Shown here piece after piece: positions 12,625 to 64,000 of a stretch of 64,000 bases of DNA (its first letter is position 1; every line of letters starts with the position of its first letter). The notes beneath the pieces are model-generated. The model made no database searches. It saw only the letters and a program-made list of their open reading frames with translations, and had not been told where the DNA came from. Made by a program: the position numbers and the translations under genes. This DNA comes from Bacteroidales bacterium (lineage in GTDB: Bacteria > Bacteroidota > Bacteroidia > Bacteroidales > Bacteroidaceae), in NCBI GenBank assembly GCA_012517855.1, contig JAAYUD010000114.1, forward strand, positions 13,217-77,216. Direction: 5' to 3'.

Positions 12625-12643
12625 TATTACCAACAAATAAATA

Positions 12644-14686
12644 ATGCCTATGAAATTACTTAATTTATTACCCTTAGGGGTTGTATGTATGATGTCAATG
12701 GGAGTTAGTAAGACTAGTGCGCAGACACTAAAGAGCGGTATCAATCTATCAAACTTGGACAAGACTGCTAATCCGGGAACCGATTTTTACCAATTTGCTT
12801 GCGGTGGCTGGATGAAACAACATCCACTCACGGCAGAATATGCCCGCTTCGGATCTTTTGATATGGTTGCCGAAAACAACAAAAACCAATTGAAAGGTTT
12901 GATTCTAAAGTTGGCCGAGAATAAAAACAATGCTCCGGGGAGCTTAGCTCAAAAAGTCGGTGATGTTTATAACATGGCAATGGACAGCATCACACTGAAC
13001 AAACAAGGTGCCGCACCATTAAAAGCGGATTTAGCTAAAATATCAGCCATCCGTACCCGTGCCCAACTTTATACAGTACTGGGAGATCTTCGCCACTTTG
13101 GTTGTGATCCATTTTTCGGTCTATACATCGGAGCTGACGACAAGAATAGCAAAGCTAATCTGCTGCAATTTGGACAAGGTGGACTTTCTTTAGGAGAACG
13201 CGACTATTACTTGGAACAAAGTGCCAAGATGAAAGATATTCGTGCAAAATACGTAAAGTTCATTGCTAAGATGTTCCGTTTGGCTGGATATGATGCAACA
13301 ACGGCTCAAAACGCTTCAAAATATGTAATGGATATTGAAACCAGACTTGCCAAAATAGCCCGTACTCAAGAAGCATTGCGCGATCCTTATAAAAATTATA
13401 ATAAAATGACTGTTGACCAAGTAAAAGCTAAATGGTCAACCTTCGGATGGAACAATTTCTTAGATCACGCCGGACTTTCAGCTGCGAAAGAGATCAATGT
13501 AGGACAACCGGAATCTATAGGCGAAGTAGCAAAAATAACAGCGACACTCCCACTAAAAGAGATCGTCGCCTATTTGCAATGGAATATTATCAATGGCGGT
13601 GCTTCCGAATTGAGCGATGCTTTCATTCAAGCCCAGTTTGACTTCTATGGTCGTACCATGTCAGGACGTCAACAAAACAGACCACGGTGGAAACGTGCCG
13701 TATCGGCTGTCGACGGGGCCCTTGGTGAAGCAGTAGGGAAAATGTATGTTGAAGAATATTTTCCTGCATCATCAAAAGAGCGTATGATTCAACTGGTCAA
13801 GAATTTACAGAAATCATTATCGGAACGTATCCAAGGACTAGCCTGGATGAGCGATGCCACTAAAGAAAAAGCACAAGAGAAACTTGCCGCTTTCCGCATT
13901 AAAATAGGTTATCCGGACAAATGGAAAGATTACTCTAAACTCGACATTAAAAACGATTCCTATTATGCTAACATGAAACGGGCTTCAGAATGGGAATACG
14001 ATCGTATGCTCGAAAAATTAGGCAAACCTGTCGATCCGGACGAATGGTTGATGACCCCGCAGACTGTTAATGCTTATTACAACCCGACGACCAATGAAAT
14101 TTGTTTCCCCGCGGGTATTCTGCAATATCCGTTCTTTGATATGAAAGCCGATGATGCATTTAATTATGGTGCTATCGGTGTAGTAATAGGTCACGAAATG
14201 ACTCACGGATTCGACGATCAAGGACGTCAATACGATAAAGAAGGAAATCTGAAAGATTGGTGGACAGCCGAAGACGGCAAAAACTTCGAGACTCGTGCTA
14301 AAGTAATGTCCGATTTCTTTAGCAATATTACTGTCGCTCCGGGATTAAAAGCAAATGGACAATTGACGCTCGGCGAAAACATTGCCGACCACGGTGGATT
14401 GCAAGTTTCTTATAACGCATTCAAAAATGCCATGAAAGAGACTCCACTTACTACCATAGACGGTTTTACTCCTGAACAACGATTCTTCCTTGCCTATGCC
14501 AATGTTTGGGCTGGCAACATCCGCCCTGAGCAGATATTAAACCAGACGAAGAGCGATCCTCACGCGCTAGGCAAATGGCGGGTCGACGGTGCCCTTCCTC
14601 AAATCGGTGCTTGGTACGAAGCATTCGGAATACAGCCTTCAGATTCAATGTATTTACCGGTAGAAAAAAGAGTTTCTATCTGGTAG
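12644..14686 (+). CDS. M13 family metallopeptidase (neprilysin/PepO-like), secreted
   Basis: Signal peptide, zinc motif VIGHEMTHGFD and downstream GENIADHGG. Confidence 0.9.
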   Translation: MPMKLLNLLPLGVVCMMSMGVSKTSAQTLKSGINLSNLDKTANPGTDFYQFACGGWMKQHPLTAEYARFGSFDMVAENNKNQLKGLILKLAENKNNAPGSLAQKVGDVYNMAMDSITLNKQGAAPLKADLAKISAIRTRAQLYTVLGDLRHFGCDPFFGLYIGADDKNSKANLLQFGQGGLSLGERDYYLEQSAKMKDIRAKYVKFIAKMFRLAGYDATTAQNASKYVMDIETRLAKIARTQEALRDPYKNYNKMTVDQVKAKWSTFGWNNFLDHAGLSAAKEINVGQPESIGEVAKITATLPLKEIVAYLQWNIINGGASELSDAFIQAQFDFYGRTMSGRQQNRPRWKRAVSAVDGALGEAVGKMYVEEYFPASSKERMIQLVKNLQKSLSERIQGLAWMSDATKEKAQEKLAAFRIKIGYPDKWKDYSKLDIKNDSYYANMKRASEWEYDRMLEKLGKPVDPDEWLMTPQTVNAYYNPTTNEICFPAGILQYPFFDMKADDAFNYGAIGVVIGHEMTHGFDDQGRQYDKEGNLKDWWTAEDGKNFETRAKVMSDFFSNITVAPGLKANGQLTLGENIADHGGLQVSYNAFKNAMKETPLTTIDGFTPEQRFFLAYANVWAGNIRPEQILNQTKSDPHALGKWRVDGALPQIGAWYEAFGIQPSDSMYLPVEKRVSIW

Positions 14687-14703
14687 TTCTATACTTATTA
14701 TAA

Positions 14704-14760
14704 ATTCGCCCGCAAAAATGATTAACGAATAAACATTTATTCGTAACTTTGCGGGCGAAT
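14704..14760 (+). terminator. Bipartite hairpin between the M13 peptidase gene and purH
   Basis: 13-bp perfect outer stem ATTCGCCCGCAAA / TTTGCGGGCGAAT plus inner stem ACGAATAAA / TTTATTCGT. No T-run. Confidence 0.5.
14744..14751 (+). promoter_or_regulatory. Candidate -7 promoter box for purH
   Basis: TAACTTTG matches TAnnTTTG, 31 nt upstream of ATG 14783. It is embedded in the 3-prime arm of the hairpin. Confidence 0.45.
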
Positions 14761-14782
14761 ATATATAAATAATAATATCGAA

Positions 14783-16306
14783 ATGTCAGAGCCCAAAAAA
14801 ATTAAAACCGCACTTATTTCCGTTTTTCATAAAGACGGATTGGACGAAATCATCGAAAAACTTCACGCAGACGGCGTTGAGTTTTTGTCAACAGGAGGTA
14901 CACGTCAGTTCATTGAATCAAAAGGGTTTGCATGCAAAGCTGTAGAAGACCTCACCACTTATCCTTCTATATTAGGCGGACGAGTAAAAACTTTGCATCC
15001 AAAAGTTTTTGGAGGCATTCTTTGCCGTCGTGATGTAACTGAAGACCAAAAACAAATTGCTCAATACGAAATACCCGAAATAGATTTGGTCATCGTCGAT
15101 TTATATCCTTTCGAAGAAACTGTTACTTCGGGCGCTTCTGAACAAGATATTATAGAAAAAATAGATATCGGTGGTATTTCACTGATCCGTGCAGCTGCCA
15201 AAAATTACAAAGACGTAGTTATAGTAGCTTCAAAAGATCAATATAAACCATTGTTGGATATGTTAAACGAACATGATGCTACATCCACAATGGAAGAACG
15301 CCGTTGGTTCGCCAAAGAAGCCTTCGGTGTATCATCCTATTACGATACTCACATCTTCAACTATTTTGATGGAGAAGAACATACAGCATTCCGTAGCGCT
15401 TTTAACGATCAAAAGATGTTACGCTATGGAGAGAACCCTCATCAGAAAGGTTATTTCTTCGGAGATCTAGACGCTATCTTCGATCAAATTCACGGAAAAG
15501 AAATTTCGTATAACAATCTGACGGATATCAATGCAGCTATCGAACTTATAGACGAGTTTGAAGAGACCACTTTCGCTGTTCTAAAACACAACAACGCTTG
15601 TGGCATCGCTTCTCGCCCAACAGTACTCGACGCATGGAAAGATGCTTTAGCCGGTGACCCCGTTTCGGCCTACGGTGGCGTACTAATTACTAATGCCCCT
15701 ATCGACAAAGAGGCTGCAGAGGAAATAGGCAAAATATTCTTTGAAGTAATTATCGCTCCCGATTATGATGTCGATGCACTTGACATCTTGACCCAAAAGA
15801 AGAACCGTATTATTTTGGTTCGCAAAGATGCCAAATTTCCAAAGCTACAATTCCATTCTTTACTAAATGGCGTTCAATTCCAGGAGAGGGATTTAGACAT
15901 TGAAACAAAATCGGATTTAAAAGTTGTTACAGAAAAGGCTCCGACAGATACAGAAATAGAAGACATGCTCTTCGCAAATAAAATTGTAAAAAACAGTAAA
16001 TCAAATACGATTGTTCTCGCCAAAGGTCGACAACTTTTAGCTAGCGGTGTAGGACAGACCTCACGTGTTGATGCCCTAAAACAAGCCATTGAAAAAGCCA
16101 AGAATTTCGGATTTGATCTTCATGGCGCAGTAATGGCATCAGATGCATTTTTCCCTTTCCCCGATTGTGTAGAAATTGCAGATAACGAAGGGATAACAGC
16201 TGTTATCCAACCCGGCGGATCGGTGAGAGATCAACTTTCTTTTGACTACTGCAATGACCACGGATTGGCTATGGTTACAACAGGTATCAGACATTTTAAA
16301 CATTAA
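14783..16306 (+). CDS. purH: Bifunctional AICAR transformylase / IMP cyclohydrolase
   Basis: 507 aa. N-terminal MGS-like domain (ALISVFHKDGL) and AICARFT domain, full-length match by eye. Confidence 0.95.
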   Translation: MSEPKKIKTALISVFHKDGLDEIIEKLHADGVEFLSTGGTRQFIESKGFACKAVEDLTTYPSILGGRVKTLHPKVFGGILCRRDVTEDQKQIAQYEIPEIDLVIVDLYPFEETVTSGASEQDIIEKIDIGGISLIRAAAKNYKDVVIVASKDQYKPLLDMLNEHDATSTMEERRWFAKEAFGVSSYYDTHIFNYFDGEEHTAFRSAFNDQKMLRYGENPHQKGYFFGDLDAIFDQIHGKEISYNNLTDINAAIELIDEFEETTFAVLKHNNACGIASRPTVLDAWKDALAGDPVSAYGGVLITNAPIDKEAAEEIGKIFFEVIIAPDYDVDALDILTQKKNRIILVRKDAKFPKLQFHSLLNGVQFQERDLDIETKSDLKVVTEKAPTDTEIEDMLFANKIVKNSKSNTIVLAKGRQLLASGVGQTSRVDALKQAIEKAKNFGFDLHGAVMASDAFFPFPDCVEIADNEGITAVIQPGGSVRDQLSFDYCNDHGLAMVTTGIRHFKH

Positions 16307-16334
16307 TTGACTTAGATACTAATTTAGAAAAGAT

Positions 16335-17357
16335 ATGGGATTATTTTCTTTCACACAAGAAATAGCGATGGACTTGGGAACAGCCAACACTGTCATCATC
16401 AGTGGCGGTAAGATTGTTGTCGATGAACCATCAGTTGTTGCCTTGGACCGCCGCACAGACAAAATGATTGCTGTAGGTGACAAAGCCAAAATGATGCACG
16501 AAAAGACGAATGAAAACATTCGCACTATTCGTCCACTTCGTGACGGCGTAATTGCAGACTTTTTTGCCTGCGAGCAAATGATGCGCGGACTCATTAAACA
16601 AGTCAACACGCGCCATCATCTATTTTCTCCGTCACTCAGAATGGTTATCGGCGTTCCGTCGGGTAGCACGGAAGTTGAACTACGTGCTGTTCGTGACTCA
16701 GCGGAGCATGCCGGCGGACGTGACGTCTACTTAATTTTCGAGCCAATGGCTGCGGCAATCGGTATAGGCATCGATGTCGAAGCTCCTGAAGGAAATATGA
16801 TCGTTGATATAGGCGGTGGTTCTACTGAAATAGCAATTATCTCATTAGGTGGCATTGTGACAAACAATTCTATCCGCATAGCTGGAGATGATTTGACAGC
16901 AGACATTCAAGAATACATGAGCCGTCAACACAATGTAAAAGTCAGTGAACGTATGGCAGAACGTATTAAGATCAATGTAGGTGCTGCTCTTACCGAGCTA
17001 GGAGACGACGCCCCCGAAGATTACATCGTACACGGGCCAAACCGTATCACCGCACTACCGATGGAGGTTCCGGTATGCTATCAAGAAGTGGCCCATTGCT
17101 TGGAGAAATCTGTTGCAAAAATAGAAACGGCCGTTCTCAATGCCTTAGAGAACACCCCACCAGAACTATATGCCGATATTGTCAGTAATGGCATTTATTT
17201 GGCAGGCGGAGGAGCTTTGCTTCGTGGACTTGACAAACGTTTGACCGATAAAATAAACATTCCTTTCCATATTGCTGAGGATCCTTTGCACGCTGTTGCC
17301 AAGGGTACAGGCGTAGCATTAAAGAACGTAGATCGCTTTTCTTTCTTGATGCGTTAA
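16335..17357 (+). CDS. mreB: Rod shape-determining protein MreB
   Basis: Actin-like ATPase motifs DLGTANT and DIGGGSTE; followed by mreC and mreD. Confidence 0.95.
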   Translation: MGLFSFTQEIAMDLGTANTVIISGGKIVVDEPSVVALDRRTDKMIAVGDKAKMMHEKTNENIRTIRPLRDGVIADFFACEQMMRGLIKQVNTRHHLFSPSLRMVIGVPSGSTEVELRAVRDSAEHAGGRDVYLIFEPMAAAIGIGIDVEAPEGNMIVDIGGGSTEIAIISLGGIVTNNSIRIAGDDLTADIQEYMSRQHNVKVSERMAERIKINVGAALTELGDDAPEDYIVHGPNRITALPMEVPVCYQEVAHCLEKSVAKIETAVLNALENTPPELYADIVSNGIYLAGGGALLRGLDKRLTDKINIPFHIAEDPLHAVAKGTGVALKNVDRFSFLMR

Positions 17358-17376
17358 AGATGATGAAGTGTGAAAT

Positions 17377-18228
17377 ATGCGAAACTTACTGAATTTTCTT
17401 ATCAAATATAACTATTGGCTTCTTTTCCTAGCATTAGAAGCCTTAAGTTTTATTTTGCTATTTCACTATAATCAATATCAGGAAAGTTATTTCTTCAATT
17501 CTGCCAATGCCGTTACTGGTAAGATTTATGAGGTATCGGGAGGGATAGCGTCTTATTTCCATTTGAAATCTGTAAATAAAGATTTGCTAGACCGAAATAT
17601 GGAATTGGAAACTAAAATTCAGAATCTGGAAAAGACGCTTAAAGCGCACCAAGTCGATTCGTTAGAACTATTGAGCATCGAACGCTTACCGCAAGGAAGC
17701 TATATGCTCTACAAAGCGAACGTCATTAATAACAGCCTAAACCTGACTGATAACTATATTACTATTGATAAAGGTTGGGCTGCAGGTATTCGCCCTGATA
17801 TGGGTGTAGTGGATGCCAACGGCGTTGTCGGCATTGTTTATGAAACGACCCGTAATTATGCTACCGTTATTTCATTACTCAACAGTCGTTCGAATATCAG
17901 TTGCAAAATCGTGGGAAGCAACTACTTCGGCACCTTACGTTGGGATCATTCAGATTCTCAACATGCCTATTTAGAAGATCTTCCACGCCATGCTCAGTTT
18001 AATTTGGGTGATACAGTAGTCACCAGTGGATATTCGTCTGTATTTCCGGCAGGTATCATGGTAGGAACAGTTGATGACATGGGAGATTCTAACAATGGAC
18101 TTTCCTATTTACTGAAAATTAAATTGGCTACCGACTTCGGTAGAATCAGTGACGTCAGAGTTATTGCCCGCAAGGGATATCAACAACAAAAAGCCTTAGA
18201 GCAAAAGAGTATTATCACAAATGAATGA
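17377..18228 (+). CDS. mreC: Rod shape-determining protein MreC
   Basis: N-terminal TM helix, coiled coil, beta-rich C-terminal domain; position after mreB. Confidence 0.8.
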   Translation: MRNLLNFLIKYNYWLLFLALEALSFILLFHYNQYQESYFFNSANAVTGKIYEVSGGIASYFHLKSVNKDLLDRNMELETKIQNLEKTLKAHQVDSLELLSIERLPQGSYMLYKANVINNSLNLTDNYITIDKGWAAGIRPDMGVVDANGVVGIVYETTRNYATVISLLNSRSNISCKIVGSNYFGTLRWDHSDSQHAYLEDLPRHAQFNLGDTVVTSGYSSVFPAGIMVGTVDDMGDSNNGLSYLLKIKLATDFGRISDVRVIARKGYQQQKALEQKSIITNE

Positions 18229-52289: not shown

Positions 52290-55200
52290 ATGAAAATAAA
52301 GTTTGCCATTGTCACATCGTTTTTACTCATTCTCTTTGCTGTAAATATTTCAGCGCAATCTTACGATAATTTGTGGAAACAAATTCTTGAAACACAGAAA
52401 AAAGAGTTACCTAAGACTGTCATTGGTCTATGCGATAAGGTTATTGCAAAAGCCAAAAAGGAAAACAACCATGGACAGTTGCTCCAAGCTTATTTTACAC
52501 GGATGGTTAGTAAAGGAAGCATTTCGAATGACAGCACCTACAGCCAGCTAAAAGAACTGGAGCAATGGGCTGCAACATCTAATCAACCTACAGAACGGAT
52601 GTTACTTCATTCCATCTTGGCAAACTTCTACGCCCAGTATGCCTCAAACAACCGTTACGAAATGCCTACCAATGTTACAGGAATAAAACCTGTAGAAGAC
52701 ATTAAAGAATGGACGAGAATACAATTTTGGGATGCAACAATCAAGCATCTGAATGCTTCTCTCGAAGATGAGAAATTGCTCCACTCCACCAACAGCGAAA
52801 AATATGTTCCCTTTGCAAAACAACAATGGGCAAGTATTTATTACAAGCACGACCTACTCCACGTACTTGGATATAAAGCGATAAATTCACTTGAAACATT
52901 CAGAAATGTCGCAGACAAGAATCAAAAAGTAGAAGTCTCTCAACGAATCGCTCAAATATACAACGACCTGATAACCATCTACAAGCAAGCGAATGAAGAA
53001 AGTGCCGTTATCCTCACCACGCTCGATAAACTCAGATTTGAATATCACCTTTCAGGCAACAAGCAGAAATATCTTTCTGGGTTGGAGCAACTGTTATCAC
53101 AAACAAACCCTTCAAACGAAGTGCGTGCCGAAATTCTAACCGCAAAAGCCCTTTATTATTCACAACAGAAGAAACAATATCTTAAGAAAGCACTTTCAAC
53201 CTACGAAGAGGCAATCACTCTTTACCCCAAGTATGCCCGCATAAATGTTGCCAAACAAGAGAAGGCATATATTACTCGACCGGTGGTAACATTGAAGAAT
53301 TTGGCAAACGTGGTATATCCCAATAGCAAAATAAGGATACTAGTCAATCATCGCAATGCAGATAGTTTTGATGTACTTTACTATCGTCTTCCCGAGAACT
53401 TACCTGCCAAAGATATTAAGATATCGAACTGTAAGTTAGAAAGCAGTCAACATTTTATACTGAAGAATTCGTCAGACTATCAAAGCAAAGAGGACTTATT
53501 TCAGATAAACACACCAGGATTTGGCACATACGCTGTTATAGTAAAGGAAGGAAACGATGAAAGCTATTTAAAAAAGGCTCCGGAAAGAATCATTCGCACG
53601 ACTAAGCTAAAAGTTCTAGTCATGCAAACCGACAAAAAGAAAATAGATGCCGTTGTAGTAGATGCCAATACTGGAGAACTCGTTAGCGGTGCTTCGGTCG
53701 AGTTGGCAAACAATAATGAAAAACTCATCGCAAAACAGACGACCGATGCTCAGGGTAGGACTACCTTCATTACAAATGGTAACAATACCAAAATAAGAGC
53801 AACAAAAAACGATGACAAATACATGGAATATCAGTTTATCTATAGTTGGTATCAACTATATTCGAGTGAGAAAAACACAACGAGCTATGCCAGATTAATA
53901 ACCGACCGCAGCATTTACAGACCAGGACAAACGGTGTATTTGAAAGGTATCGTATACAATCAGACAGGTGATAGTACCAAAGTCTGTCCAACCAAAACGC
54001 TCCATGTTTTGCTACGCGATGCCAATGAGCAGGAAATAGCAAACAAGGAAGTCACAACAAACGAATTCGGTTCTTTCAATTTGCAATTTATATTACCTTC
54101 GACATGCCTCAATGGCAGATTTACAATCCATACTGAAATGGGACAAACCTCATTCAATGTTGAAGAATATAAACGACCGACTTTCGAAGTAACAACCGAT
54201 GAAATAAAATCTACGTACAAACTGGGCGACACCATACATGTAACAGGTCATGCACAATCGTTCTCGGGTATTCCTATCACAAGCTGCTACGCCAAATATA
54301 CGGTCAATAGAAACAAATATATGAGATGGCGTACTTTGGGTCAGCAAATCATAGCAACCGATAGTGTAAAAATAAATGCCAACGGTCATTTCGATTTACC
54401 TGTTGCACTAACCTCCGAATCTCAAAATATAGATAATGACAATGAGGGAGAAGAGACACAAGTCATCGAGGCTGTAGAAGGCGACGATGATATACAATCG
54501 GATGAAACTACAGAGGAGGACGAAGAGAATGGACTCACCTATTATACTTTCAATGTAAATATCGAAGTCACCAATCTGGCAGGAGAAACACAAAATGGGA
54601 ACGTAGCATTGGCAGTAGGTTCCCAATCACTCATATTGAATCGCGCTTCGGAAGAAAATATTTGTAAAGACAAAGCGATCAAAGTACGCCTTGAAGCAAC
54701 CAATCTGCTGCAAAAGCCCGTTGATACGACTATCAATTACGCACTGTATTCGGTAAAAAAAGGAGAACAAAACAATCTTGTTGACAAGGGTAGCATTACA
54801 GCCAATAATTCTTTCGACAAAGAAGAATGGCGCAAACTGCCATCAGGCAAATACGAACTCCGAATGACAGCAACAGATTCGCAAGGCAGAGAAGTGAAGC
54901 GAACAGAAAGCCTCGTTTTATTCTCAGCTACCGATAAGCAACCGGCAGACGAAAGCAATATCTGGCTTTATATTCCCAATAAAGAGAAAAATGGCAAATG
55001 CTATACGGATCTCAAGCATCCTGCACAATTTTATTTTGGCACCGCGCAAAAGGATGCAACGATCTTGATGGACGTCTTCGCCGATGGGAAACGCATAGAG
55101 AGTAAAGTATTGAAACTGTCGAACGAGATAAAATCATTTGAGTATCCCTACAATCCATCCTACAAAGACGGTATTTCATTCAACTTCTGCTTTGTGAAAG

Positions 55201-58106
55201 ACAACTTGCTATTCCAGGAGGAAGTAACCTTCGCCCGATCTCTTCCAGTGCAACAATTGCGCCTGAAATGGAGTGTCTTCCGCGACAAAATACATCCGGG
55301 ACAGAAAGAGGAATGGAAACTCAACATACAGACTCCGCAGGGTAAGCCCGCCAATGCAGAAATGCTAGCTTTCATGTACGACGCTTCGCTAGACAAATTG
55401 ACTTCGCATAACATCTACGGAGAAGTATTTTATCCGCGTGATATACAAAATCAAAATTGGAGAACCTCATACCAAAGCAGATACGATGAAACATACTTCG
55501 GCATCATTAACTCTTATAATATAAAACAATTGGAGTTCGACCATTTGTGGGATGTAAACGAGTGGATAAACATGGCCAATGAGTGGAAGAGAAATAGAAA
55601 TTTAAGAATCGGAGGTAGAGGACTAATGTTGGCAAAAAGTTCTTCTCCACTGATGGAATCGACCGTTATAAAAACTGCAGAAGTGAAAGGAAATGACGAA
55701 AAAAACAGTAAAGAGATAGTAGAATTGAACGAGGTTATGGCAATGGGAATTGATTCAAGAAAGAAAGACGAAGCAACGTCTGGTCAACAGCCTATACGTT
55801 CGAACTTTGCCGAAACAGCATTCTTCTATCCCAGCCTCCGCACCGATTCCAAGGGAGATGTATCTATCGTATTCACCTTGCCCGAAAGCCTTACTCGCTG
55901 GAAGTTCATGGGGTATGCCCATACCAAAGAGATGCTCAACGGTATGCTCGGCGGAGAAACCGTTGCTTCTAAAGAATTAATGCTTACGCCTAATATGCCC
56001 CGATTTGTACGCACGGGAGACCATGCGGTTATTGCTGCGACAGTATCGAATATGACAGATAAAGCCATTAAAGCCAATGTGAAATTCGAATTGTTCGACC
56101 CCCAAACCGAGCAAATTATACTTAGCCAAAGCAAACCGCTTTCATTGGGTGCTCAGAAAAGCGAAGGCACTTCGTTCGACTTCACCGTCAGCGAACGTTA
56201 CGATATTCTTGGTGTAAGAATCGTCGCCGATGGAGGAACTTTCAGCGATGGCGAGCAACATCTTCTGCCGGTATTAAGCAATAAAATCATGTTGACCGAA
56301 TCAATTCCTCTACCCATTCGCGGCAATCAGAGTAGAGAATTTTCACTCGATAAACTATTTAATAATCACAGCAAGACTGCCACAAAGCGAAGTCTGACGA
56401 TCGAATACACAGGCAATCCATCTTGGTATGCCATCCAAGCACTACCTTCACTGGCTTTACCTCAAAGCGACAACGCCATTTGTTGGGCAATAGCATTATA
56501 TGCCAACTCACTAGCTTCGCATATTGCAAACTCCACTCCTCGCATCAAAAATATATTCGACAGTTGGAAAGCAACCGGACAATCGAAAGAGAGTCTATTA
56601 AGTAACTTGCAAAAGAATCAAGAGCTAAAGAATATTCTGCTCAACGAATCACCTTGGGTACTCGAAGCTAAAAGTGAACAAGAACAAAAGGAACGGCTCT
56701 CTACCCTCTTCGATTTGAACAACATTCAAAACAATAATCTGACCACTGTCAATAAATTGCAGCAACTACAAAACGAAGACGGTAGTTGGAGTTGGTTCAA
56801 GGGAATGAAGGGCAGCGAATATATCACCGAGTATGTAGTGAGACTTATAGCTCGCATTCATCTACTTACGGGACAGCCGCTATCGGAAGAAGTAAAAGCC
56901 ATGCAACAAAAAGGAATCGGTTTCCTTCATGGCGAAAGCCAGCGCCAGTACGAATGGATCAAGAAAGCAGAGAAAGAAGGTCAAAAGATAAAAGGTATAT
57001 CATACAGCACCCTCCGTTATTTGTATCTATTGAGTATCACCGATTCTCAAATTCCCAATCAATACAAAACGCAATACAATTATTTCTTGAACAAAATAGA
57101 CGAAGTGCCCTCTTCTCTGGATATGCAAGAGAAAGCACTGGCTGCTGTCATCTTAAAACAAGCAGACAAAACAAAGGCAGCCAACGAATACATGGCATCA
57201 ATCAAAGAACATCTCACAAAAAGTGATGAACTCGGCGAGTATTTCGATTTCAACGACGATCCTTTTTCGTGGGGTTGCATGCACCTCAATGCGCATACGG
57301 CAGCCATCGAAGCGTTCGAAAATGTAAGCAACGACTACGAGACGGCACAAGAGATGAAACTTTGGTTGCTCAAACAAAAGCAAACTCAGCTATGGGACAC
57401 TCCCGTTTCGACCGCTGATGCCATCTGCGCATTAGTCGGAAAAAGTACAGACATCCTATCAAACAAAGGCACTGTCGATATTAGCATCGCAAGCCGTAAG
57501 CTCAGTACAGATGACAGCAACACGACCACTGGCCTTAGTTATCTTAAAGATAGTTTCACAGACCAACCCACAATAAATGCCCGCAGTATCAAAGTCGAAA
57601 AGAAAGATGCCGACATAGCTTGGGGAGCTGTTTATGCTCAATTTACAGAAGAGATCAGTAATGTCAAACAACAAGGCAGTGAAGCATTCAGTGTCAAGAA
57701 AGCTTTATTTGTTAAACGCATTGTCAACAACGTGGAAGAACTCCAACCCATCACCGACCAGAACGAACTGAAGATAGGCGACATTGTCACAGCACGTTTG
57801 GTCATCAAACTAAACCGAAAGATGGATTTCGTACAACTTAAGGAACAACGCGGTGCTTGCTTTGAACCGATGACACAACTGTCGGGATACCATTACGAGG
57901 CAGGAACAGGATACTACGAAGAAATAAAAGATGCTTCGACTAATTTCTTCTTCGACTCGTTGCAGAAAGGCACTTATGTGTTGGAAATAAACTATCGAGT
58001 AAGCCGAGCAGGAAGTTACGAAGCGGGACTTTCGACCTTGCAATGTGCATACGCTCCGGAATTTGCGACCCACTCGGAGTCTATGCGAATAACAATCAAT
58101 AAATAG
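52290..58106 (+). CDS. Alpha-2-macroglobulin family protein (large, no thioester motif)
   Basis: 1938 aa, signal peptide. A2M hallmark RSNFAETAFFYPSLRTDSKGDVSIVFTLPESLTRWKF and TED-like NEDGSWSWFKG. No CxEQ anywhere. Confidence 0.85.
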   Translation: MKIKFAIVTSFLLILFAVNISAQSYDNLWKQILETQKKELPKTVIGLCDKVIAKAKKENNHGQLLQAYFTRMVSKGSISNDSTYSQLKELEQWAATSNQPTERMLLHSILANFYAQYASNNRYEMPTNVTGIKPVEDIKEWTRIQFWDATIKHLNASLEDEKLLHSTNSEKYVPFAKQQWASIYYKHDLLHVLGYKAINSLETFRNVADKNQKVEVSQRIAQIYNDLITIYKQANEESAVILTTLDKLRFEYHLSGNKQKYLSGLEQLLSQTNPSNEVRAEILTAKALYYSQQKKQYLKKALSTYEEAITLYPKYARINVAKQEKAYITRPVVTLKNLANVVYPNSKIRILVNHRNADSFDVLYYRLPENLPAKDIKISNCKLESSQHFILKNSSDYQSKEDLFQINTPGFGTYAVIVKEGNDESYLKKAPERIIRTTKLKVLVMQTDKKKIDAVVVDANTGELVSGASVELANNNEKLIAKQTTDAQGRTTFITNGNNTKIRATKNDDKYMEYQFIYSWYQLYSSEKNTTSYARLITDRSIYRPGQTVYLKGIVYNQTGDSTKVCPTKTLHVLLRDANEQEIANKEVTTNEFGSFNLQFILPSTCLNGRFTIHTEMGQTSFNVEEYKRPTFEVTTDEIKSTYKLGDTIHVTGHAQSFSGIPITSCYAKYTVNRNKYMRWRTLGQQIIATDSVKINANGHFDLPVALTSESQNIDNDNEGEETQVIEAVEGDDDIQSDETTEEDEENGLTYYTFNVNIEVTNLAGETQNGNVALAVGSQSLILNRASEENICKDKAIKVRLEATNLLQKPVDTTINYALYSVKKGEQNNLVDKGSITANNSFDKEEWRKLPSGKYELRMTATDSQGREVKRTESLVLFSATDKQPADESNIWLYIPNKEKNGKCYTDLKHPAQFYFGTAQKDATILMDVFADGKRIESKVLKLSNEIKSFEYPYNPSYKDGISFNFCFVKDNLLFQEEVTFARSLPVQQLRLKWSVFRDKIHPGQKEEWKLNIQTPQGKPANAEMLAFMYDASLDKLTSHNIYGEVFYPRDIQNQNWRTSYQSRYDETYFGIINSYNIKQLEFDHLWDVNEWINMANEWKRNRNLRIGGRGLMLAKSSSPLMESTVIKTAEVKGNDEKNSKEIVELNEVMAMGIDSRKKDEATSGQQPIRSNFAETAFFYPSLRTDSKGDVSIVFTLPESLTRWKFMGYAHTKEMLNGMLGGETVASKELMLTPNMPRFVRTGDHAVIAATVSNMTDKAIKANVKFELFDPQTEQIILSQSKPLSLGAQKSEGTSFDFTVSERYDILGVRIVADGGTFSDGEQHLLPVLSNKIMLTESIPLPIRGNQSREFSLDKLFNNHSKTATKRSLTIEYTGNPSWYAIQALPSLALPQSDNAICWAIALYANSLASHIANSTPRIKNIFDSWKATGQSKESLLSNLQKNQELKNILLNESPWVLEAKSEQEQKERLSTLFDLNNIQNNNLTTVNKLQQLQNEDGSWSWFKGMKGSEYITEYVVRLIARIHLLTGQPLSEEVKAMQQKGIGFLHGESQRQYEWIKKAEKEGQKIKGISYSTLRYLYLLSITDSQIPNQYKTQYNYFLNKIDEVPSSLDMQEKALAAVILKQADKTKAANEYMASIKEHLTKSDELGEYFDFNDDPFSWGCMHLNAHTAAIEAFENVSNDYETAQEMKLWLLKQKQTQLWDTPVSTADAICALVGKSTDILSNKGTVDISIASRKLSTDDSNTTTGLSYLKDSFTDQPTINARSIKVEKKDADIAWGAVYAQFTEEISNVKQQGSEAFSVKKALFVKRIVNNVEELQPITDQNELKIGDIVTARLVIKLNRKMDFVQLKEQRGACFEPMTQLSGYHYEAGTGYYEEIKDASTNFFFDSLQKGTYVLEINYRVSRAGSYEAGLSTLQCAYAPEFATHSESMRITINK

Positions 58107-58157
58107 TGAATTAACGCCTATTAACCAGTTTAGTGCCTTCAGCTGAATAGTTTTTCC

Positions 58158-58165
58158 TATTTTTG
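58158..58165 (+). promoter_or_regulatory. Candidate -7 promoter box
   Basis: TATTTTTG matches TAnnTTTG, 20 nt upstream of ATG 58186. Confidence 0.4.
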
Positions 58166-58185
58166 CAAGACAAACAAATGGATTA

Positions 58186-59262
58186 ATGAAATTGAAAAAG
58201 ATTTTACTATATAGCATTTTATTTGCTACATCATCGGTTTTTGCCCAACCGCGCATCTCATCGAATACCGAAAGAGTTAATTTAAATCGGATAGAGTGGA
58301 AGAAACCGGTGAAAGTGGAATATATTATAACCAACTCCGGCGACAAGCCACTGGTTATTAACAAAGTGATTACTTCTTGTGCCTGCACTGTTGCCGATTG
58401 GACCAAAACCCCTATTGCCTCGGGCGATAAAGGAAAAGTGGTTGCCACATTCGATGCTCAGCTATTGGGACATTTCGAAAAAGATGTGTGCATATATAGC
58501 AACGCCACACCTCATCTGGTCTATCTCACCTTTGGTGGCGAAGTGGTAAATCAGGTGAATGACGTATCGAGCACACACCCTTACAAGATAGGCAATATAG
58601 CTATAGACCGCACCTCTATCAATTTCCCTAATGCGCATCGTGGCGACAAGCTCACAGCGACCCTTGATATTGTAAATCAATCCGATAGACCGTACGAACC
58701 TATATTGATGCACCTGCCAAGTTATATAACAATGAAAAGCAACTCAAATATGTTGCTCAAGGGACAACGAGGTATCATCAAATTGACATTCGATACGAAG
58801 CAGCTGAATGATGTGGGCGAAATTCAGAACTCGATTTATCTGTCGCGCTTCAATGGTGATAAAATCTCCCCCGAAAATGAGATACCTATTTCGATCGTCC
58901 TTTTGCCCGATTTCTCAAAAATGACAGAAGCCGACAAACAAAAAGCACCGATTATAAACCTCACTGATACGATATTCAACATAGCTAAAGACGTTGCCGA
59001 AAAAAGCAAAATAGCCAAAGAAATAACGATTGCCAACAAAGGACTTTCGCCATTGGTCATTACCAAAGTCCAAGTATTCAATTCGGCTATCAGCATATCT
59101 CTCAAGAAACGCATTCTACAGCCCAACGAAACGACAACTCTTAAAATAGATGTAAGGTCTCATACGTTAAAGAACGACAAAAACAAAACACATATTCTGA
59201 TTATCAGTGACGATCCTATTCATCCCAAGATGGATATTAATCTGATTACATCGAAACAATAA
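58186..59262 (+). CDS. DUF1573 domain-containing secreted protein
   Basis: Signal peptide, then ITNSGDKPLVINKVITSCACTVADWTKTPIASGDKGKV, the classic DUF1573 block. A further repeat-like segment follows (ANKGLSPLVITKVQV). Confidence 0.8.
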   Translation: MKLKKILLYSILFATSSVFAQPRISSNTERVNLNRIEWKKPVKVEYIITNSGDKPLVINKVITSCACTVADWTKTPIASGDKGKVVATFDAQLLGHFEKDVCIYSNATPHLVYLTFGGEVVNQVNDVSSTHPYKIGNIAIDRTSINFPNAHRGDKLTATLDIVNQSDRPYEPILMHLPSYITMKSNSNMLLKGQRGIIKLTFDTKQLNDVGEIQNSIYLSRFNGDKISPENEIPISIVLLPDFSKMTEADKQKAPIINLTDTIFNIAKDVAEKSKIAKEITIANKGLSPLVITKVQVFNSAISISLKKRILQPNETTTLKIDVRSHTLKNDKNKTHILIISDDPIHPKMDINLITSKQ

Positions 59263-59279
59263 ATCAAAATATCAGAGCT

Positions 59280-60371
59280 ATGGAACACCCCGAAAATGAT
59301 GCAGAATACAAAGGATTGGCAGTAAACGCCGGCGTAGAACAACCGTCGACTATCAATCCATATTTGAAGCCACGCCCCAGACGCCATTTAATGACAGCAG
59401 GCGAATATGTGGAAGGTATCGTAAAAGGAAATATTACTGTACTAAGTCAGGCTGTCACGCTTATCGAATCGGTACGCCCCGAACACGAGGCCATTGCACA
59501 AGAGGTAATAGAAAAATGTCTCCCCTACTCAGGACGTTCGGTACGTATAGGAATCAGTGGTGTACCAGGTGCCGGTAAAAGTACTTCTATAGATGTTTTC
59601 GGCATTCATGTATTAGAAAAAGGCGGCAAGCTTGCAGTGCTTGCCATCGACCCCAGCAGCGAACGAAGCAAAGGCAGCATATTGGGCGACAAGACCCGTA
59701 TGGAGAAACTAGCCGTTCATCCGAACTCTTTCATACGCCCTAGCCCAACTGCCGGTTCATTGGGTGGTGTAGCCCGCAAAACGCGAGAAACTATCGTGCT
59801 TTGCGAAGCCGCCGGTTTTGACAAGATATTTATCGAGACAGTCGGAGTCGGTCAAAGCGAAACAGCTGTTCACTCAATGGTAGACTTCTTCTTACTCATA
59901 CAACTGGCTGGAACCGGTGATGAGCTGCAAGGTATAAAGAGAGGTATCATGGAAATGGCAGATGGTATCATCATCAATAAGGCAGACGGTAGCAATATAG
60001 ATAAGGCCAACCTTGCAGCAACTCAATTCCGCAATGCGCTGCATTTGTTCCCTACTCCAGAATCGGGTTGGACACCCAAAGTTTTAACTTATTCAGGATT
60101 TTATGGCATTGGGATCAAAGAAATATGGGATATGGTAGACGAGTATATCGCCTTCGTCAAAGAAAACGGATATTTCGACTATCGCCGAAATGAACAAAGC
60201 AAGTATTGGATGTACGAGACCATCAACGAACATCTGCGGAGCAGTTTCTACCACAATAATACGATTGCCGAAATGCTTCAACAAAGAGAAAACGATGTAT
60301 TGGACGGCAAACTTACATCGTTTGTGGCTGCCAAACAGCTTTTGGACGAATATTTCAAGCTGCTGAAATAA
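59280..60371 (+). CDS. meaB: Methylmalonyl-CoA mutase-associated GTPase MeaB / ArgK-type
   Basis: P-loop GVPGAGKST, GVGQSE switch, NKAD specificity motif. Confidence 0.85.
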   Translation: MEHPENDAEYKGLAVNAGVEQPSTINPYLKPRPRRHLMTAGEYVEGIVKGNITVLSQAVTLIESVRPEHEAIAQEVIEKCLPYSGRSVRIGISGVPGAGKSTSIDVFGIHVLEKGGKLAVLAIDPSSERSKGSILGDKTRMEKLAVHPNSFIRPSPTAGSLGGVARKTRETIVLCEAAGFDKIFIETVGVGQSETAVHSMVDFFLLIQLAGTGDELQGIKRGIMEMADGIIINKADGSNIDKANLAATQFRNALHLFPTPESGWTPKVLTYSGFYGIGIKEIWDMVDEYIAFVKENGYFDYRRNEQSKYWMYETINEHLRSSFYHNNTIAEMLQQRENDVLDGKLTSFVAAKQLLDEYFKLLK

Positions 60372-60408: not shown

Positions 60409-61326
60409 TTACAGTTCTTTTCCCACTTGTTCAAAATCGGTACGCGATTTGCTCAAAGTGACATAAGATACACCTAGTATAATAAGAATGATGGCAACAG
60501 CTTTCATCCAATCGAGATCGTCAATACCCATCATCACCATAACCAATGCTACGATAATGGGCTGAATATAATTGTACATACTTACAATAGTAGGACGAAG
60601 CAAACGTTGGCTGCTCATCAGGCAGATATAAGCTAGGAATGTACTTCCTATTACGACATACCCCAAACGAAGCCAAAGAGCTACGGAGAAAGTTGAAAAA
60701 TCGATTGAAACGAGATCTGCGTAAGAGAAAGGGATGAAACAAACCGAAGCATATATAAACAACCACTTGCAGATGGTAATAGGCGAATATTTCAAAACAA
60801 GATCTCTAAACAGCACCAAATAGAATGCAAAACTGATTTGTGAAAACAGACACAGTACATCCCCCGTCAGATTCCCGGGATGGCGTCCCGTTGTCTGACA
60901 ATTCAGTATCAAAATAAAAACCCCCATGGCACCAACAAAAACGCCCATCACTTTCATGCCGGTTATCGGTTCCTTTAAGTAGATAGCAGCAATGATCATC
61001 GTAATAATAGGCATGGCAGTGGTTACGATCGAAGCGTCAAGAGCAGTGGTATACGAAAGTCCGAAGAGGAACATTCCCTGATTGAGAACAACACCCAGCA
61101 GAGCAGCAAAAAACAATTTGAGCATATCTTGATGATGCACATGTTCTTTGGGAAGGAACAAAGAAAATGTCCAAAACACTAAAGCCGCTACGACCATGCG
61201 AATCGTGGTCACGGTAAGAGCCGAAAGCTCTCCCAATATCGTTTTGCCTATCGATGCATTCAATCCCCATAAAGCATTGGCTGCCAATACGGCAGCATGC
61301 CCTCTCATATTTTTATCGTTTGGCAT
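60409..61326 (-). CDS. DMT superfamily (EamA-type) transporter
   Basis: 305 aa, about 10 TM segments in two EamA-like halves. Confidence 0.8.
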   Translation of the reverse strand: MPNDKNMRGHAAVLAANALWGLNASIGKTILGELSALTVTTIRMVVAALVFWTFSLFLPKEHVHHQDMLKLFFAALLGVVLNQGMFLFGLSYTTALDASIVTTAMPIITMIIAAIYLKEPITGMKVMGVFVGAMGVFILILNCQTTGRHPGNLTGDVLCLFSQISFAFYLVLFRDLVLKYSPITICKWLFIYASVCFIPFSYADLVSIDFSTFSVALWLRLGYVVIGSTFLAYICLMSSQRLLRPTIVSMYNYIQPIIVALVMVMMGIDDLDWMKAVAIILIILGVSYVTLSKSRTDFEQVGKEL

Positions 61327-61384
61327 TTCTTTCGTATTATTAATAATTTTCTCACAAAAGTAACAATAAAATCAGAAGAATGAT

Positions 61385-61392
61385 TAACTTTG
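61385..61392 (+). promoter_or_regulatory. Candidate -7 promoter box of the ATPase/DUF4435-like pair
   Basis: TAACTTTG matches TAnnTTTG, 27 nt upstream of ATG 61420. It overlaps the TTG start used by the ORF track. Confidence 0.45.
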
Positions 61393-61419
61393 AAGAAAGA
61401 AATACTAATCATTACGACG

Positions 61420-62253
61420 ATGAGGACAAGAGCGAATTACATTCGACGGATAGAAATAGAAGGTCTCTGGAACAAATATTCTATTGCTTGGGACCTAAAG
61501 CCCGATGTAAATATTCTGTCGGGGGTGAATGGTGTAGGCAAAACGACTATACTAAGCAAGTCTGTCAGTTTTCTCGATAACATAGCAGGAGAGGCAACTA
61601 ACGGCACTATTGATGGCGTACATCTCTATTTTGATCCAGAAGACGCTACATACATCGTTTATGACTTCATCAAAAGCTACGATCGCCCACTGGTTCAGGG
61701 AGAATTTACAGCCCGGATGGCTGATAAAAATGTAAAATCAGAACTCGATTGGCAAATATACCTCATGCAAAGACGATATTTGGACTATCAGGTAAATATA
61801 GGCAATCGTATGATAGAACTTTTGGCAAGTAAAGAAGCTGCAGATCATGTAAAAGCCGCCGAAATATCAAAGCCGAAACAACTATTTCAAGATAGCATCG
61901 ACGAACTTTTCAGCTATACCAATAAAAAAATTGCACGCCAGCGCAATGATATTGCTTTTTATCAGAATGACGAGCTTCTATTACCTTACAAACTTTCATC
62001 CGGTGAAAAACAAATGGTGCTCATCCTACTCACTGCACTAGTAGAAGATAACCAACACTGTGTATTGTTTATGGATGAACCCGAAGCCTCTTTGCACATT
62101 GAATGGCAGCAAAAACTCATTGGAAAAATCACAAAGCTCAATCCTAATGCCCAAATCATCTTGACCACGCATTCTCCTGCTGTCATTATGGAAGGCTGGA
62201 TAGATAAAGTAACAGAAGTCGAAGATATAACCACCAACTCCAAGAAACACTAA
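61420..62253 (+). CDS. Compact ABC/SMC-like (AAA_21/AAA_15-type) ATPase
   Basis: Walker A GVNGVGKTT (61522-61548), signature-like LSSGEKQ, Walker B VLFMDEPEASLH, H-loop TTHSP. Start taken at ATG 61420 rather than TTG 61390. Confidence 0.8.
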   Translation: MRTRANYIRRIEIEGLWNKYSIAWDLKPDVNILSGVNGVGKTTILSKSVSFLDNIAGEATNGTIDGVHLYFDPEDATYIVYDFIKSYDRPLVQGEFTARMADKNVKSELDWQIYLMQRRYLDYQVNIGNRMIELLASKEAADHVKAAEISKPKQLFQDSIDELFSYTNKKIARQRNDIAFYQNDELLLPYKLSSGEKQMVLILLTALVEDNQHCVLFMDEPEASLHIEWQQKLIGKITKLNPNAQIILTTHSPAVIMEGWIDKVTEVEDITTNSKKH

Positions 62254-62256
62254 ACT

Positions 62257-63285
62257 ATGTCGCGCAGATTAGTCGATAATTTATCATCAAATTATTTTGG
62301 AGCATCACACAGTTTATATCCTAAGCGCCAGCGACAACGTATTGTAGCATACGTAGAAAGTTACGATGATGTAGCATTCTGGCGCAATATTCTATCCGAA
62401 TTTGAAGATAAAGACCATTACTTTGAGGTAATGCTTCCCTCGCAAACGACCTTGGCTAAAGGGAAAAAAATGGTACTGACCAATTCGCTCCAAGCAAATC
62501 AATTGGGACCCAATCTTATTGCCTGTGTAGATAGCGATTACGACTTCTTACTGCAAGGGGCAACAAAAGTATCGGACGATATCAATTCCAATCGTTACAT
62601 TTTCCAGACCTATGCGTATGCTATAGAAAACTATCAATGCTATGCCGAAGGACTACACGATGTATGCGTACAGAGCACATTGAACGACAGGCAAATACTA
62701 GATTTTGTAGCTTTTATGGAACAATATTCGGAAATAGTTTATCCGCTCTTCTTGTGGTGCATCTGGTTTTATCGCCAACACGACACATACACCTTCCCCA
62801 TGCACGAATTCAATGACGCCGCACGACTTTTCGGCGATGTAGACGTCAACAATCCGCAACAAAGCCTGTACGAAACCGAACGTCACGTTCGATCTTCGTT
62901 GCATCGGATGCGCAACAAATTCGGTGCGACCCAAACCAAAGTAGATGCGCTGGGCGAAAGTCTCAAACGGCTGGGATTGAACCCGAAAACGACCTATCTC
63001 TACATTCAGGGACATCATATCAAAGACAATGTGATTATGAAACTTCTCAACCCCATTTGTTCTGTCCTTCGAAGAGAAAGAGAAAACGAGATAAAGAAGC
63101 TTGCCGAACACGAAGAACAATATCACAACGAGATAACCAGCTATGACAATAGTCAAGCATCGCTAGAGCTGATTCTCCGCAAAAGCACTTCTTACCAAAC
63201 GCTCTATCTCTATCAATGGCTTCGTGAAGATCTGACAGACTTGATGAACGAGATCACTAAAAAGCAACAAGAAAAATCCAATTAA
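62257..63285 (+). CDS. DUF4435/TOPRIM-like protein (putative nuclease partner)
   Basis: VESYDD (62353-62370), CVDSDYD (62524-62544) and YAYAIENY give an E / DxD / E pattern as in OLD-type TOPRIM (DUF4435). 3-nt gap to the ATPase gene. Confidence 0.55.
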   Translation: MSRRLVDNLSSNYFGASHSLYPKRQRQRIVAYVESYDDVAFWRNILSEFEDKDHYFEVMLPSQTTLAKGKKMVLTNSLQANQLGPNLIACVDSDYDFLLQGATKVSDDINSNRYIFQTYAYAIENYQCYAEGLHDVCVQSTLNDRQILDFVAFMEQYSEIVYPLFLWCIWFYRQHDTYTFPMHEFNDAARLFGDVDVNNPQQSLYETERHVRSSLHRMRNKFGATQTKVDALGESLKRLGLNPKTTYLYIQGHHIKDNVIMKLLNPICSVLRRERENEIKKLAEHEEQYHNEITSYDNSQASLELILRKSTSYQTLYLYQWLREDLTDLMNEITKKQQEKSN

Positions 63286-63312: not shown

Positions 63313-64000
63313 CTAAACCATCTTTCTGAGCCGATATAAGTAACCGACCTTGGTACGAAATTTCTTCACTCCCATCATCGCCAGGTGTATGCCAAAAGTG
63401 TTGATGGATATATCGCGCATGGTAGAAGGACTGTATTTGCGCAACGTTTCGTAAATTTGCGAGATGGAGAAACTTTTAACGTTCTCTTCAGCATCCTCCG
63501 CTGAAGGCACCTGAAAGCAGGCATTGAAAATGGGCTCTTCTATCGGGCGTTTGGTGTAGGCTACGTTGCGTTCGATGAGCCGGGTTTCTTCGCATGGCTG
63601 TAGCCAGTGCCGCTTTTTCAGGCCAATCTCGTATTTGAGCTGTGCATAGAGCTGATCATAGTTTATCCGCAATTTAGTAATTCTGTCTTTCAGCTCAATT
63701 GGTATGAACCGACGCGAACCGGTGGGATCGGTCAGTAGCTCCCGATAGTTGGCAGTCCCAATGAAAGAAGCGGTGCGTTGCTTCTGCTCGTACTCGGCAC
63801 TACCGTAAGACTTAGTACTCGTATCTGCCATCTGAAGAATATTTTTCAATCGGGCGCATTTCGCTTCACCCATGCGGTTGAACTCGTCGATATTGATAAG
63901 TGCAAATTTCGACAGCTTGGGCACGGCATTGCTTCGAGTGGTCAGGTCAAATTCGTCGGTATAGTACCGACGCAATTGCTGGGGTAGCAAGAGACGGCAG
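63313..64000 (-). CDS. VirE/VapE-like P-loop (SF3 helicase-type) protein, N-terminus beyond window
   Basis: Reading frame stays open to the window edge. Walker B-like ALINIDEF, then ASFIGTAN and GSRRFIPIEL blocks, as in primase-associated VirE-family NTPases of integrative elements. Confidence 0.6.
   Translation of the reverse strand, partial: CRLLLPQQLRRYYTDEFDLTTRSNAVPKLSKFALINIDEFNRMGEAKCARLKNILQMADTSTKSYGSAEYEQKQRTASFIGTANYRELLTDPTGSRRFIPIELKDRITKLRINYDQLYAQLKYEIGLKKRHWLQPCEETRLIERNVAYTKRPIEEPIFNACFQVPSAEDAEENVKSFSISQIYETLRKYSPSTMRDISINTFGIHLAMMGVKKFRTKVGYLYRLRKMV

Follow-up and report, generated by a model that had tools for sequence, protein, structure and literature searches.

A PARIS-like gene pair with a short AriA-type ATPase at a conserved chromosomal locus of Bacteroides

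PARIS in Escherichia coli and the pair in the window

The PARIS system of Escherichia coli B185, which is borne on a P4 satellite and represented by structures 8ux9 and 8v45-8v49, consists of adjacent and co-oriented genes for a Rad50-like ABC ATPase, AriA (464 amino acids, aa), and a DUF4435 Toprim protein, AriB. Between the two ATPase lobes of E. coli AriA lie IS1 (residues 122-180, predicted to take part in recognising the trigger), a coiled coil and IS2 (residues 242-289), and together these form a helical bundle. The bundle provides the CC interface through which AriA hexamerises, and the trigger Ocr wedges into it (PMC11464382, PMC10802264). For E. coli AriB, E26A and E90A have been published as catalytic mutants, and K60 and K64, which are needed for defence, have been modelled with AlphaFold 3 as holding the anticodon loop. 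Here we describe a two-gene locus of the same architecture, formed by gene 1 (short AriA-type ABC ATPase, 277 aa; 61420-62253, plus strand) and gene 2 (AriB-type DUF4435 Toprim protein, 342 aa; 62257-63285, plus strand), in a stretch of 64,000 nucleotides (nt) from a Bacteroidales bacterium (GenBank assembly GCA_012517855.1, contig JAAYUD010000114.1, positions 13,217 to 77,216 of the forward strand), the whole of which is called the window below.

According to the list of open reading frames (ORFs) and the raw sequence, the two co-oriented genes are separated by a gap of 3 nt, the TAA stop codon of gene 1 ending at 62253 and being followed by ACT and by the ATG of gene 2 at 62257 (TAA ACT ATG). 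Gene 1 matched Pfam AAA_15 (expectation value, E, 1.8e-17; 64.4 bits) and AAA_21 (9.3e-17; 62.5 bits), and gene 2 matched DUF4435 (1.1e-46; 159.9 bits; model positions 2-237 of 238). With the 3-nt gap, these values exceed those of the published detection rule for PARIS, namely adjacent genes reaching at least 32 bits for AAA_15 or at least 27 bits for AAA_21 together with at least 27 bits for DUF4435 (PMC9122126, Rousset et al. 2022). Among the PADLOC defence models, the best match of both proteins was the dedicated AriA or AriB profile. Gene 1 matched AriA PDLC04164 at 3.1e-60 over model positions 3-252 of 253, the runners-up being far weaker (PtuA, 4.7e-23; mad3, 1.4e-16; AbiLi, 4.4e-15), and gene 2 matched AriB PDLC02983 at 7.9e-62 and PDLC04165 at 1e-37. 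No PADLOC or Pfam family besides AriB/DUF4435 was obtained for gene 2, the OLD, GajA, RloB, AbiLii and mad4 models remaining unmatched. Judged from these profile matches, the pair is a real member of the PARIS family, and it shares with E. coli PARIS a homologous ATPase head, the catalytic motifs and an E / Dx(D/E) / ENY Toprim triad.

A sequence-only reading of the window had described two tightly coupled genes with a 3-nt gap and a TAnnTTTG box of their own, an ABC ATPase much shorter than AriA with a short helical insert between its lobes, and a partner carrying the acidic E / DxD / E arrangement of Toprim nucleases, had recognised in them the architecture of PARIS, and had proposed Pfam and PADLOC searches as a check. 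The results given above and below agree with it on all of these points; the motifs that it quoted from both genes are all present, and the strong matches to family hidden Markov models argue that they did not arise by chance.

Several other systems resemble the pair in part. Septu and retron PtuA, MAD3 of MADS and AbiLi of AbiL are likewise AAA_15/21 ABC ATPases associated with nuclease effectors, and they are the second-tier sequence and fold matches of gene 1, but their partners are HNH (PtuB), mad4 or RloB-type (AbiLii) proteins and not DUF4435, and gene 2 matched none of these. An AbiL identity was rejected because gene 2 matched neither RloB nor AbiLii and gene 1 matches AbiLi at only 4.4e-15, and a MADS identity because the mad3 match (1.4e-16) lies far below that to AriA, mad4 is unmatched and no methyltransferase gene is present in the neighbourhood. 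OLD and the Gabija protein GajA, like the pair, combine an ATPase with a Toprim part that carries the acidic triad, whereas both of their domains are fused in one protein, their substrate is DNA, and Gabija adds a helicase (GajB). Since the window contains two separate genes with no helicase nearby and gene 2 matches no GajA or OLD model, an OLD/Gabija identity was also rejected.

The short ATPase and its interlobe hairpin

The sequence in PDB closest to gene 1 is E. coli AriA (8ux9/8v45, 464 aa), which matches at the two ends only, residues 8-47 of gene 1 corresponding to residues 6-45 of AriA and residues 191-263 to residues 365-435. An AlphaFold2 model of gene 1 was obtained with a mean predicted local distance difference test score (pLDDT) of 76.6 and a predicted template modelling score (pTM) of 0.78. 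When this model was compared with PDB using Foldseek, the 11 top matches were AriA chains (E, 8e-12 to 2e-10; template modelling score, 0.48-0.60), and the next were retron and Septu PtuA chains interleaved with more AriA chains.

All motifs of an ABC ATPase were located on the plus strand: Walker A GVNGVGKTT (residues 35-43, with K41; 61522-61548), the ABC signature LSSGEKQ (residues 192-198; 61993-62013), which aligns with LSSGERQ of E. coli AriA, Walker B with the D-loop, VLFMDEPEASLH (residues 215-226; 62062-62097), which aligns to chain 8ux9_B as IVLIDEPEISLHIDWQ vs VLFMDEPEASLHIEWQ, and the H-loop TTHSP (residues 249-253, with H251; 62164-62178), which aligns with CTHSP of AriA. These four motifs are invariant across the homologs of gene 1, the invariant residues of Walker A being G35, N37, G38, G40, K41 and T43. 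In the Walker B motif of E. coli AriA, DEPE, the second acidic residue lies opposite E220, and the motif, not a residue count, suggests that E220 corresponds to the E393 that is mutated in the AriA structure 8v49 (E393Q). Gene 1 thus appears, from its motifs, to be a catalytically intact ATPase of a minimal AriA type.

The AriA bundle is missing from this protein. Residues 48-190 of gene 1 stand in the place of AriA residues 46-364, which leaves a deficit of about 176 residues there and of 187 residues overall (277 vs 464 aa), and the missing part is roughly the size of IS1, IS2 and much of the coiled coil. Between the lobes, the AlphaFold2 model has no more than a beta subdomain and, after it, helices at residues 108-135, 140-149 and 151-163, and the helical hairpin that they form (residues 108-163, approximately 56 residues; 61741-61908, plus strand; pLDDT approximately 90) is the only remnant of the AriA coiled-coil insert. 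The short length is not due to truncation, because the homologs share it: of more than 8000 homologs of gene 1, nearly all of the 120 best are 275-287 aa long, and over the species loci described below the length is mostly 273-287 aa.

Per-site entropy was calculated over 50 species. Helix 108-135 is almost invariant, and variation is greatest in residues 131-160, located at the tip of the hairpin, and in residues 51-75, a surface patch. The conserved helix is probably a protein-protein interface and the variable tip may be a sensing surface, so that the hairpin as a whole, with its conserved base and variable tip, is a candidate for both oligomerisation and sensing. Because the bundle that hexamerises and binds Ocr in E. 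coli AriA is absent, the oligomeric state of gene 1 and its mode of trigger sensing probably differ from those of AriA. It is conceivable, although we regard it as doubtful, that the short-AriA/DUF4435 pair constitutes a mechanistically distinct branch of PARIS, kept as a fixed, near-core chromosomal pair in Bacteroidales. Such a branch would form no propeller-shaped hexamer and would not sense DNA-mimic proteins in the manner of E. coli AriA; a simpler ATPase dimer would control the nuclease and would answer a different, possibly endogenous, signal.

A separate observation concerns the gene 1 allele of the window. Relative to its two closest relatives (loci L016 and L017), gene 1 shows a synonymous divergence (dS) of 0.81-0.84 and a nonsynonymous divergence (dN) of 0.053-0.056, compared with 0.41-0.69 and 0.010-0.022, respectively, for four neighbouring genes including gene 2, and the 31 amino-acid differences are dispersed over the whole protein and cluster at residues 138-148. 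The raised dS and dN suggest that the allele was replaced by recombination limited to the ATPase gene.

The DUF4435 Toprim protein

Three Toprim motifs were assigned in gene 2, all on the plus strand. Motif 1, VESYDD (residues 33-38, with E34 and D38; 62353-62370), aligns with VEGRHD (E26) of E. coli AriB; motif 2, CVDSDYD (residues 90-96, with D92 and D94; 62524-62544), aligns with LCDREF (D88 and E90); and motif 3, YAYAIENY (residues 119-126, with E124 and N125; 62611-62634), aligns with HSLENY (E122). The motifs of the two proteins agree in order and have similar spacing, the alignment itself not being statistically significant (E, 0.061). Across 75 diverse representatives, whose identity to gene 2 is only 24-43%, none of E34, D38, D92, D94 and E124 varies. 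A basic patch of gene 2 (K68, K70 and K71, with G69 and K70 near-invariant) is located where E. coli AriB has K60 and K64.

Beyond the catalytic core, gene 2 is not detectably similar to E. coli AriB, so that the substrate specificity of the tRNA-cleaving AriB cannot be transferred to it. An OLD/Gabija-like activity was considered, in which the ATPase would control nicking or cleavage of phage or host DNA, and not of tRNA, by the Toprim protein; the Toprim nucleases of OLD and GajA cut DNA and share the E / DxD / E arrangement. This explanation is improbable, since gene 2 matches DUF4435/AriB and no OLD, GajA, RloB or mad4 model, there is no helicase partner, and the basic patch, judged from its position only, would correspond to the anticodon-loop lysines of AriB.

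The relation between gene 2 and canonical AriB was approached through a bridge sequence, a canonical PARIS on a Pseudoalteromonas plasmid, the AriB of which matches 8ux9_A at 6e-70. In PADLOC, an older model derived from DUF4435 was matched by the Pseudoalteromonas AriB (2e-10; positions 5-218 of 236), and most of this model is covered by gene 2 and by canonical AriB alike. The current Pfam DUF4435 model (PF14491) matched neither E. coli AriB nor its Pseudoalteromonas ortholog even at E of 10 or below, which indicates that it is centred on the Bacteroides-type proteins. By these profile comparisons gene 2 would be the typical DUF4435 protein and the AriB that has been studied a peripheral one, and pipelines that use the current Pfam model may miss canonical PARIS yet still detect the Bacteroides type.

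Inheritance of the locus and its likely role

One genome per GTDB species was scanned, and relatives were found in 519 species-level genomes; the wider family, which includes Tannerellaceae and Porphyromonadaceae, amounts to 1200 clusters at 50% identity. The best 80 of the 519 are mostly Bacteroides (among them B. thetaiotaomicron, B. ovatus, B. xylanisolvens, B. finegoldii, B. intestinalis, B. cellulosilyticus, B. nordii, B. salyersiae, B. fluxus and B. faecis), with Mediterranea as well. Bacteroides systems of this kind have been listed before. DefenseFinder reports for B. thetaiotaomicron jmh43 a PARIS_II in which 13 nt separate the DUF4435 gene (1002 nt) from the AAA_21 gene (876 nt), both of which are transcribed (PMC12135933, Table S7), and PARIS is listed for B. 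fragilis NCTC 9343 (PMC13139388). The locus that represents the species B. thetaiotaomicron in our set (L093) has a 333-aa DUF4435 gene and a 13-nt gap, which fits the sizes and gap of the jmh43 system, and its proteins are approximately 70% (gene 1) and 59% (gene 2) identical to those of the window. The locus type and flanking genes of the B. thetaiotaomicron PARIS_II are those of the window, from which it differs by the species and by the VapE/Fic island that in the lineage of the window replaces the MscS gene. The pair therefore belongs to an already catalogued but uncharacterised PARIS_II lineage of Bacteroides. The suggestion of the sequence-only reading that the pair is a minimal variant stands as far as the short ATPase is concerned; its novelty was overstated, the PADLOC AriA model itself having 253 positions and the PARIS_II label being in use.

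One unusual arrangement was found on a single 19-kilobase (kb) metagenome contig from ENA (P0217), in which the ATPase (residues 1-262) is fused in frame to DUF4435 from about residue 14, giving a protein of 585 aa. It is reminiscent of merged AriAB clades, and an assembly or deletion artefact could also account for it.

Upstream of gene 1, a Bacteroidetes-type -7 promoter box, TAACTTTG, was read from the sequence at 61385-61392 (plus strand), 35 nt before the ATG. A single TAnnTTTG box is not significant (89 matches in the window vs 68 expected), but 72 of 78 orthologous loci have one at a distance of 29-35 nt before the ATG. The ORF of gene 1 spans 61390-62253, with an in-frame ATG at 61420 that gives 277 aa. 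The TTG at 61390, which would give 287 aa, was rejected as the start codon because it lies within the promoter box, and the homologs and gene callers favour the ATG; public gene calls of the identical protein (NCBI and others) are likewise 277 aa. A second TAnnTTTG box, TACTTTTG (61355-61362, minus strand), lies 29 nt upstream of the divergent gene for an EamA transporter (60409-61326, minus strand; Pfam, 5.7e-38), and the 93-nt spacer between the EamA gene and gene 1 appears to hold two back-to-back divergent promoters of the Bacteroidetes type. Scans for sigma-70 promoters and intrinsic terminators gave nothing exceeding the shuffled expectation.

Further upstream, the window encodes at 52290-60371 a bacterial alpha-2-macroglobulin (A2M) of 1938 aa, a DUF1573 protein and a MeaB/ArgK-type GTPase, which are syntenic in Bacteroides and evolve at very unequal rates. 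The locus of a B. intestinalis-type ortholog (63% identity) has the block A2M, DUF1573, MeaB, EamA (minus strand), ATPase, DUF4435 and MscS channel, and the order is identical in B. fragilis. When the proteins of the window were compared with the best 80 species loci using tblastn, synteny was evident in most, with identities of 79-84% for MeaB, 63-74% for the ATPase (one outlier at 49%), 58-64% for DUF4435, 50-59% for EamA, 45-57% for DUF1573 and 37-57% for A2M. Genes 1 and 2 are adjacent in essentially all of these 80 loci where the contig permits, and an MscS gene follows the pair immediately in 76 of 82 loci. A B. fragilis MscS-family gene (L098/L099, 8989-10236) begins 29 nt before the DUF4435 stop codon, and this overlap suggests that the pair is co-transcribed with the mechanosensitive channel gene in that species.

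The downstream flank of the window is different. A VapE/VirE-like gene with DUF3874 (63313 to 64000, minus strand) converges on the pair at a distance of 27 nt. It is found only in the lineage of the window (L001-L004, L016 and L017), the other species compared having the pair without VapE. The L016 island (11057-18048) comprises genes for VapE, an HU-HIG protein, a 318-aa unknown protein, a SoFic-like Fic protein, a 153-aa unknown protein and HATPase_c_4, and it occupies the place of MscS; no integrase was seen in the 10 kb covered. Delivery of the pair as defence cargo of a mobile element, together with the VapE-like gene, would fit this adjacency and the HU-HIG, Fic and HATPase_c_4 genes that follow VapE in the nearest relatives. 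It is extremely unlikely and was rejected, being contradicted by the synteny, since VapE is confined to one lineage, MscS lies directly downstream in 76 of 82 loci and the dS of the pair matches that of its upstream neighbours. The sequence-only reading had named the EamA and VirE-like flanks as they are, and its interpretation of them as a typical defence-cargo position did not hold, the pair being part of a vertically inherited syntenic block.

Rates were compared over 50 loci carrying all five genes, with medians taken from 34 close species pairs. The pairwise divergences of gene 1 and gene 2 are correlated (Spearman 0.77), and the correlation between pairwise identities of the pair and of the flanks (Spearman 0.75-0.88) is as strong as that among the flanks themselves. 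The median dS was 0.45 for both genes of the pair vs 0.39-0.51 for the flanks, and the median dN/dS was 0.021 for the ATPase and 0.029 for DUF4435, compared with 0.020 for MeaB, 0.032 for EamA and 0.040 for DUF1573. From these values the pair diverged along with its neighbours under equally strong purifying selection, and it has long resided in the chromosome of Bacteroides by vertical inheritance and not as mobile cargo. It is not strictly core. When metagenome loci were anchored on EamA (n = 54), 42 had both genes beside EamA, 10 had neither within 5 kb and 2 were partial; core status was rejected on account of the 10 loci, at which 5-kb flanks cannot separate loss from a large insertion. 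Some EamA loci lacking the pair carry instead genes for a 1025-aa Tubulin_2-like protein and a 183-aa unknown protein (L120, 836-3913, minus strand) or several TolB-like beta-propeller genes (L169, 306-4493).

The explanation that we consider probable, with considerable reserve, is that the pair is a PARIS-like abortive-infection module (PARIS_II). Both genes would be expressed as one operon from the Bacteroidetes-type promoter. The ATPase would dimerise head to head around ATP, or form a small oligomer, and would keep the nuclease inactive between the ATPase heads until a phage-derived trigger alters the ATPase assembly and releases it. The freed nuclease would dimerise and, with a two-metal site made of E34, D92/D94 and E124, would cut cellular RNA, most likely tRNA, upon which translation would stop and the infection abort. 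In favour of it stand the profile and fold matches to PARIS proteins, the invariant catalytic residues, the adjacency and correlated divergence of the two genes, the rare fusion and the PARIS_II label of the B. thetaiotaomicron ortholog. The data show membership of the family, intact catalytic motifs, the operon structure, conservation and purifying selection, and the sequestration, trigger, substrate and phenotype in this scheme are carried over from E. coli PARIS.

Several results weigh against this explanation. Gene 1 lacks the region that builds the hexamer and binds Ocr in E. coli AriA. A phmmer search of gene 2 against PDB did not match the solved AriB, profiles built from its close homologs and from the 75 representatives gave no significant AriB match in PDB, and hhalign gave E of 0.19 against canonical AriB and of 0.061 against a two-sequence canonical profile. 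The structure model of gene 2 had no Foldseek match in PDB at E of 0.001 or below, AriB included, a result that is hard to weigh because the pLDDT of the model, 81 on the whole, is only 50-80 across the Toprim half. The link between gene 2 and AriB thus appears to consist only of the shared older DUF4435 model and the motif alignment. The evolutionary pattern, with dS and dN/dS at the level of the flanks, is not typical of a defence system, and the usual setting of PARIS, a phage, satellite or hotspot with patchy occurrence, which does not define the family, is replaced here by a syntenic, core-like locus. This contrasts with the satellite-borne system of E. coli B185, the pair of the window being chromosomal and vertically inherited. 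No defence genes were found near the pair in the loci examined (B. intestinalis-type, B. fragilis and the lineage-specific insertions); these insertions were considered as defence genes and rejected, being a GH2 beta-galactosidase and a histidine kinase. Among 2.9 million viral contigs, only one remote relative was found, and the literature searched contained no experiment testing a Bacteroides PARIS or a short AriA.

Much of this evidence would also be expected of a PARIS-like module that has been domesticated for a housekeeping or stress role, as an ATPase-regulated Toprim RNase acting on host RNA in tRNA or rRNA processing, turnover or growth arrest. The synteny with A2M, DUF1573, MeaB and EamA upstream and MscS downstream in most species, the dS equal to that of the flanks and the dN/dS within the range of the flanks, the near absence of the family from viral contigs, the missing trigger-binding insert and the overlap with MscS in B. 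fragilis all favour such a role, as does a published DUF4435 tree rooted with the rRNA-maturing RNase M5. We nevertheless hold domestication to be unlikely, because all characterised relatives of both proteins act in defence (PARIS, Septu/retron PtuA, MADS and AbiL) and the pair is missing within 5 kb at 10 of the 54 EamA-anchored loci. The variability is moreover focused on the hairpin tip and the ATPase surface patch, as expected of a sensor surface, and the excess dS and dN of gene 1 in the window relative to its closest relatives hints at allelic exchange.

An addiction pair of the toxin-antitoxin kind, in which the ATPase would neutralise a toxic nuclease and loss of the pair would be lethal, is suggested by the name "antitoxin" given to AriA by the PDB depositors and by a published list of B. 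fragilis defence systems that puts PARIS among toxin-antitoxin systems. We consider it very improbable. Deletion of either gene of E. coli PARIS is non-toxic, which excludes a classical toxin-antitoxin system there (PMC9122126), some lineages lack the pair at the EamA site, and the housekeeping-low dN/dS and fixed position over genus-scale time would be left unexplained.

PARIS is understood from one E. coli system only. Sensing and scaffolding in that system depend on the coiled-coil bundle of AriA (PMC11464382, PMC10802264), and a large natural subfamily, with its 1200 clusters and 519 species-level genomes, does without this bundle, so that the published mechanism is not simply transferable to every locus labelled PARIS. 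Where PARIS is counted in gut Bacteroides, it is mostly this one conserved locus that is counted and not mobile immune cargo. Defence-type modules rarely behave as this pair does: like a core gene, it keeps its position, descends vertically and has a dN/dS of approximately 0.02. Genetic tools exist for B. thetaiotaomicron and B. fragilis, and since orthologs are present in both species, immunity and domestication can be distinguished directly by experiment. If the short-AriA pairs do form a distinct branch, they would be a hard-wired immune sensor common to the genus, or else an RNase regulator domesticated for the physiology of the host.

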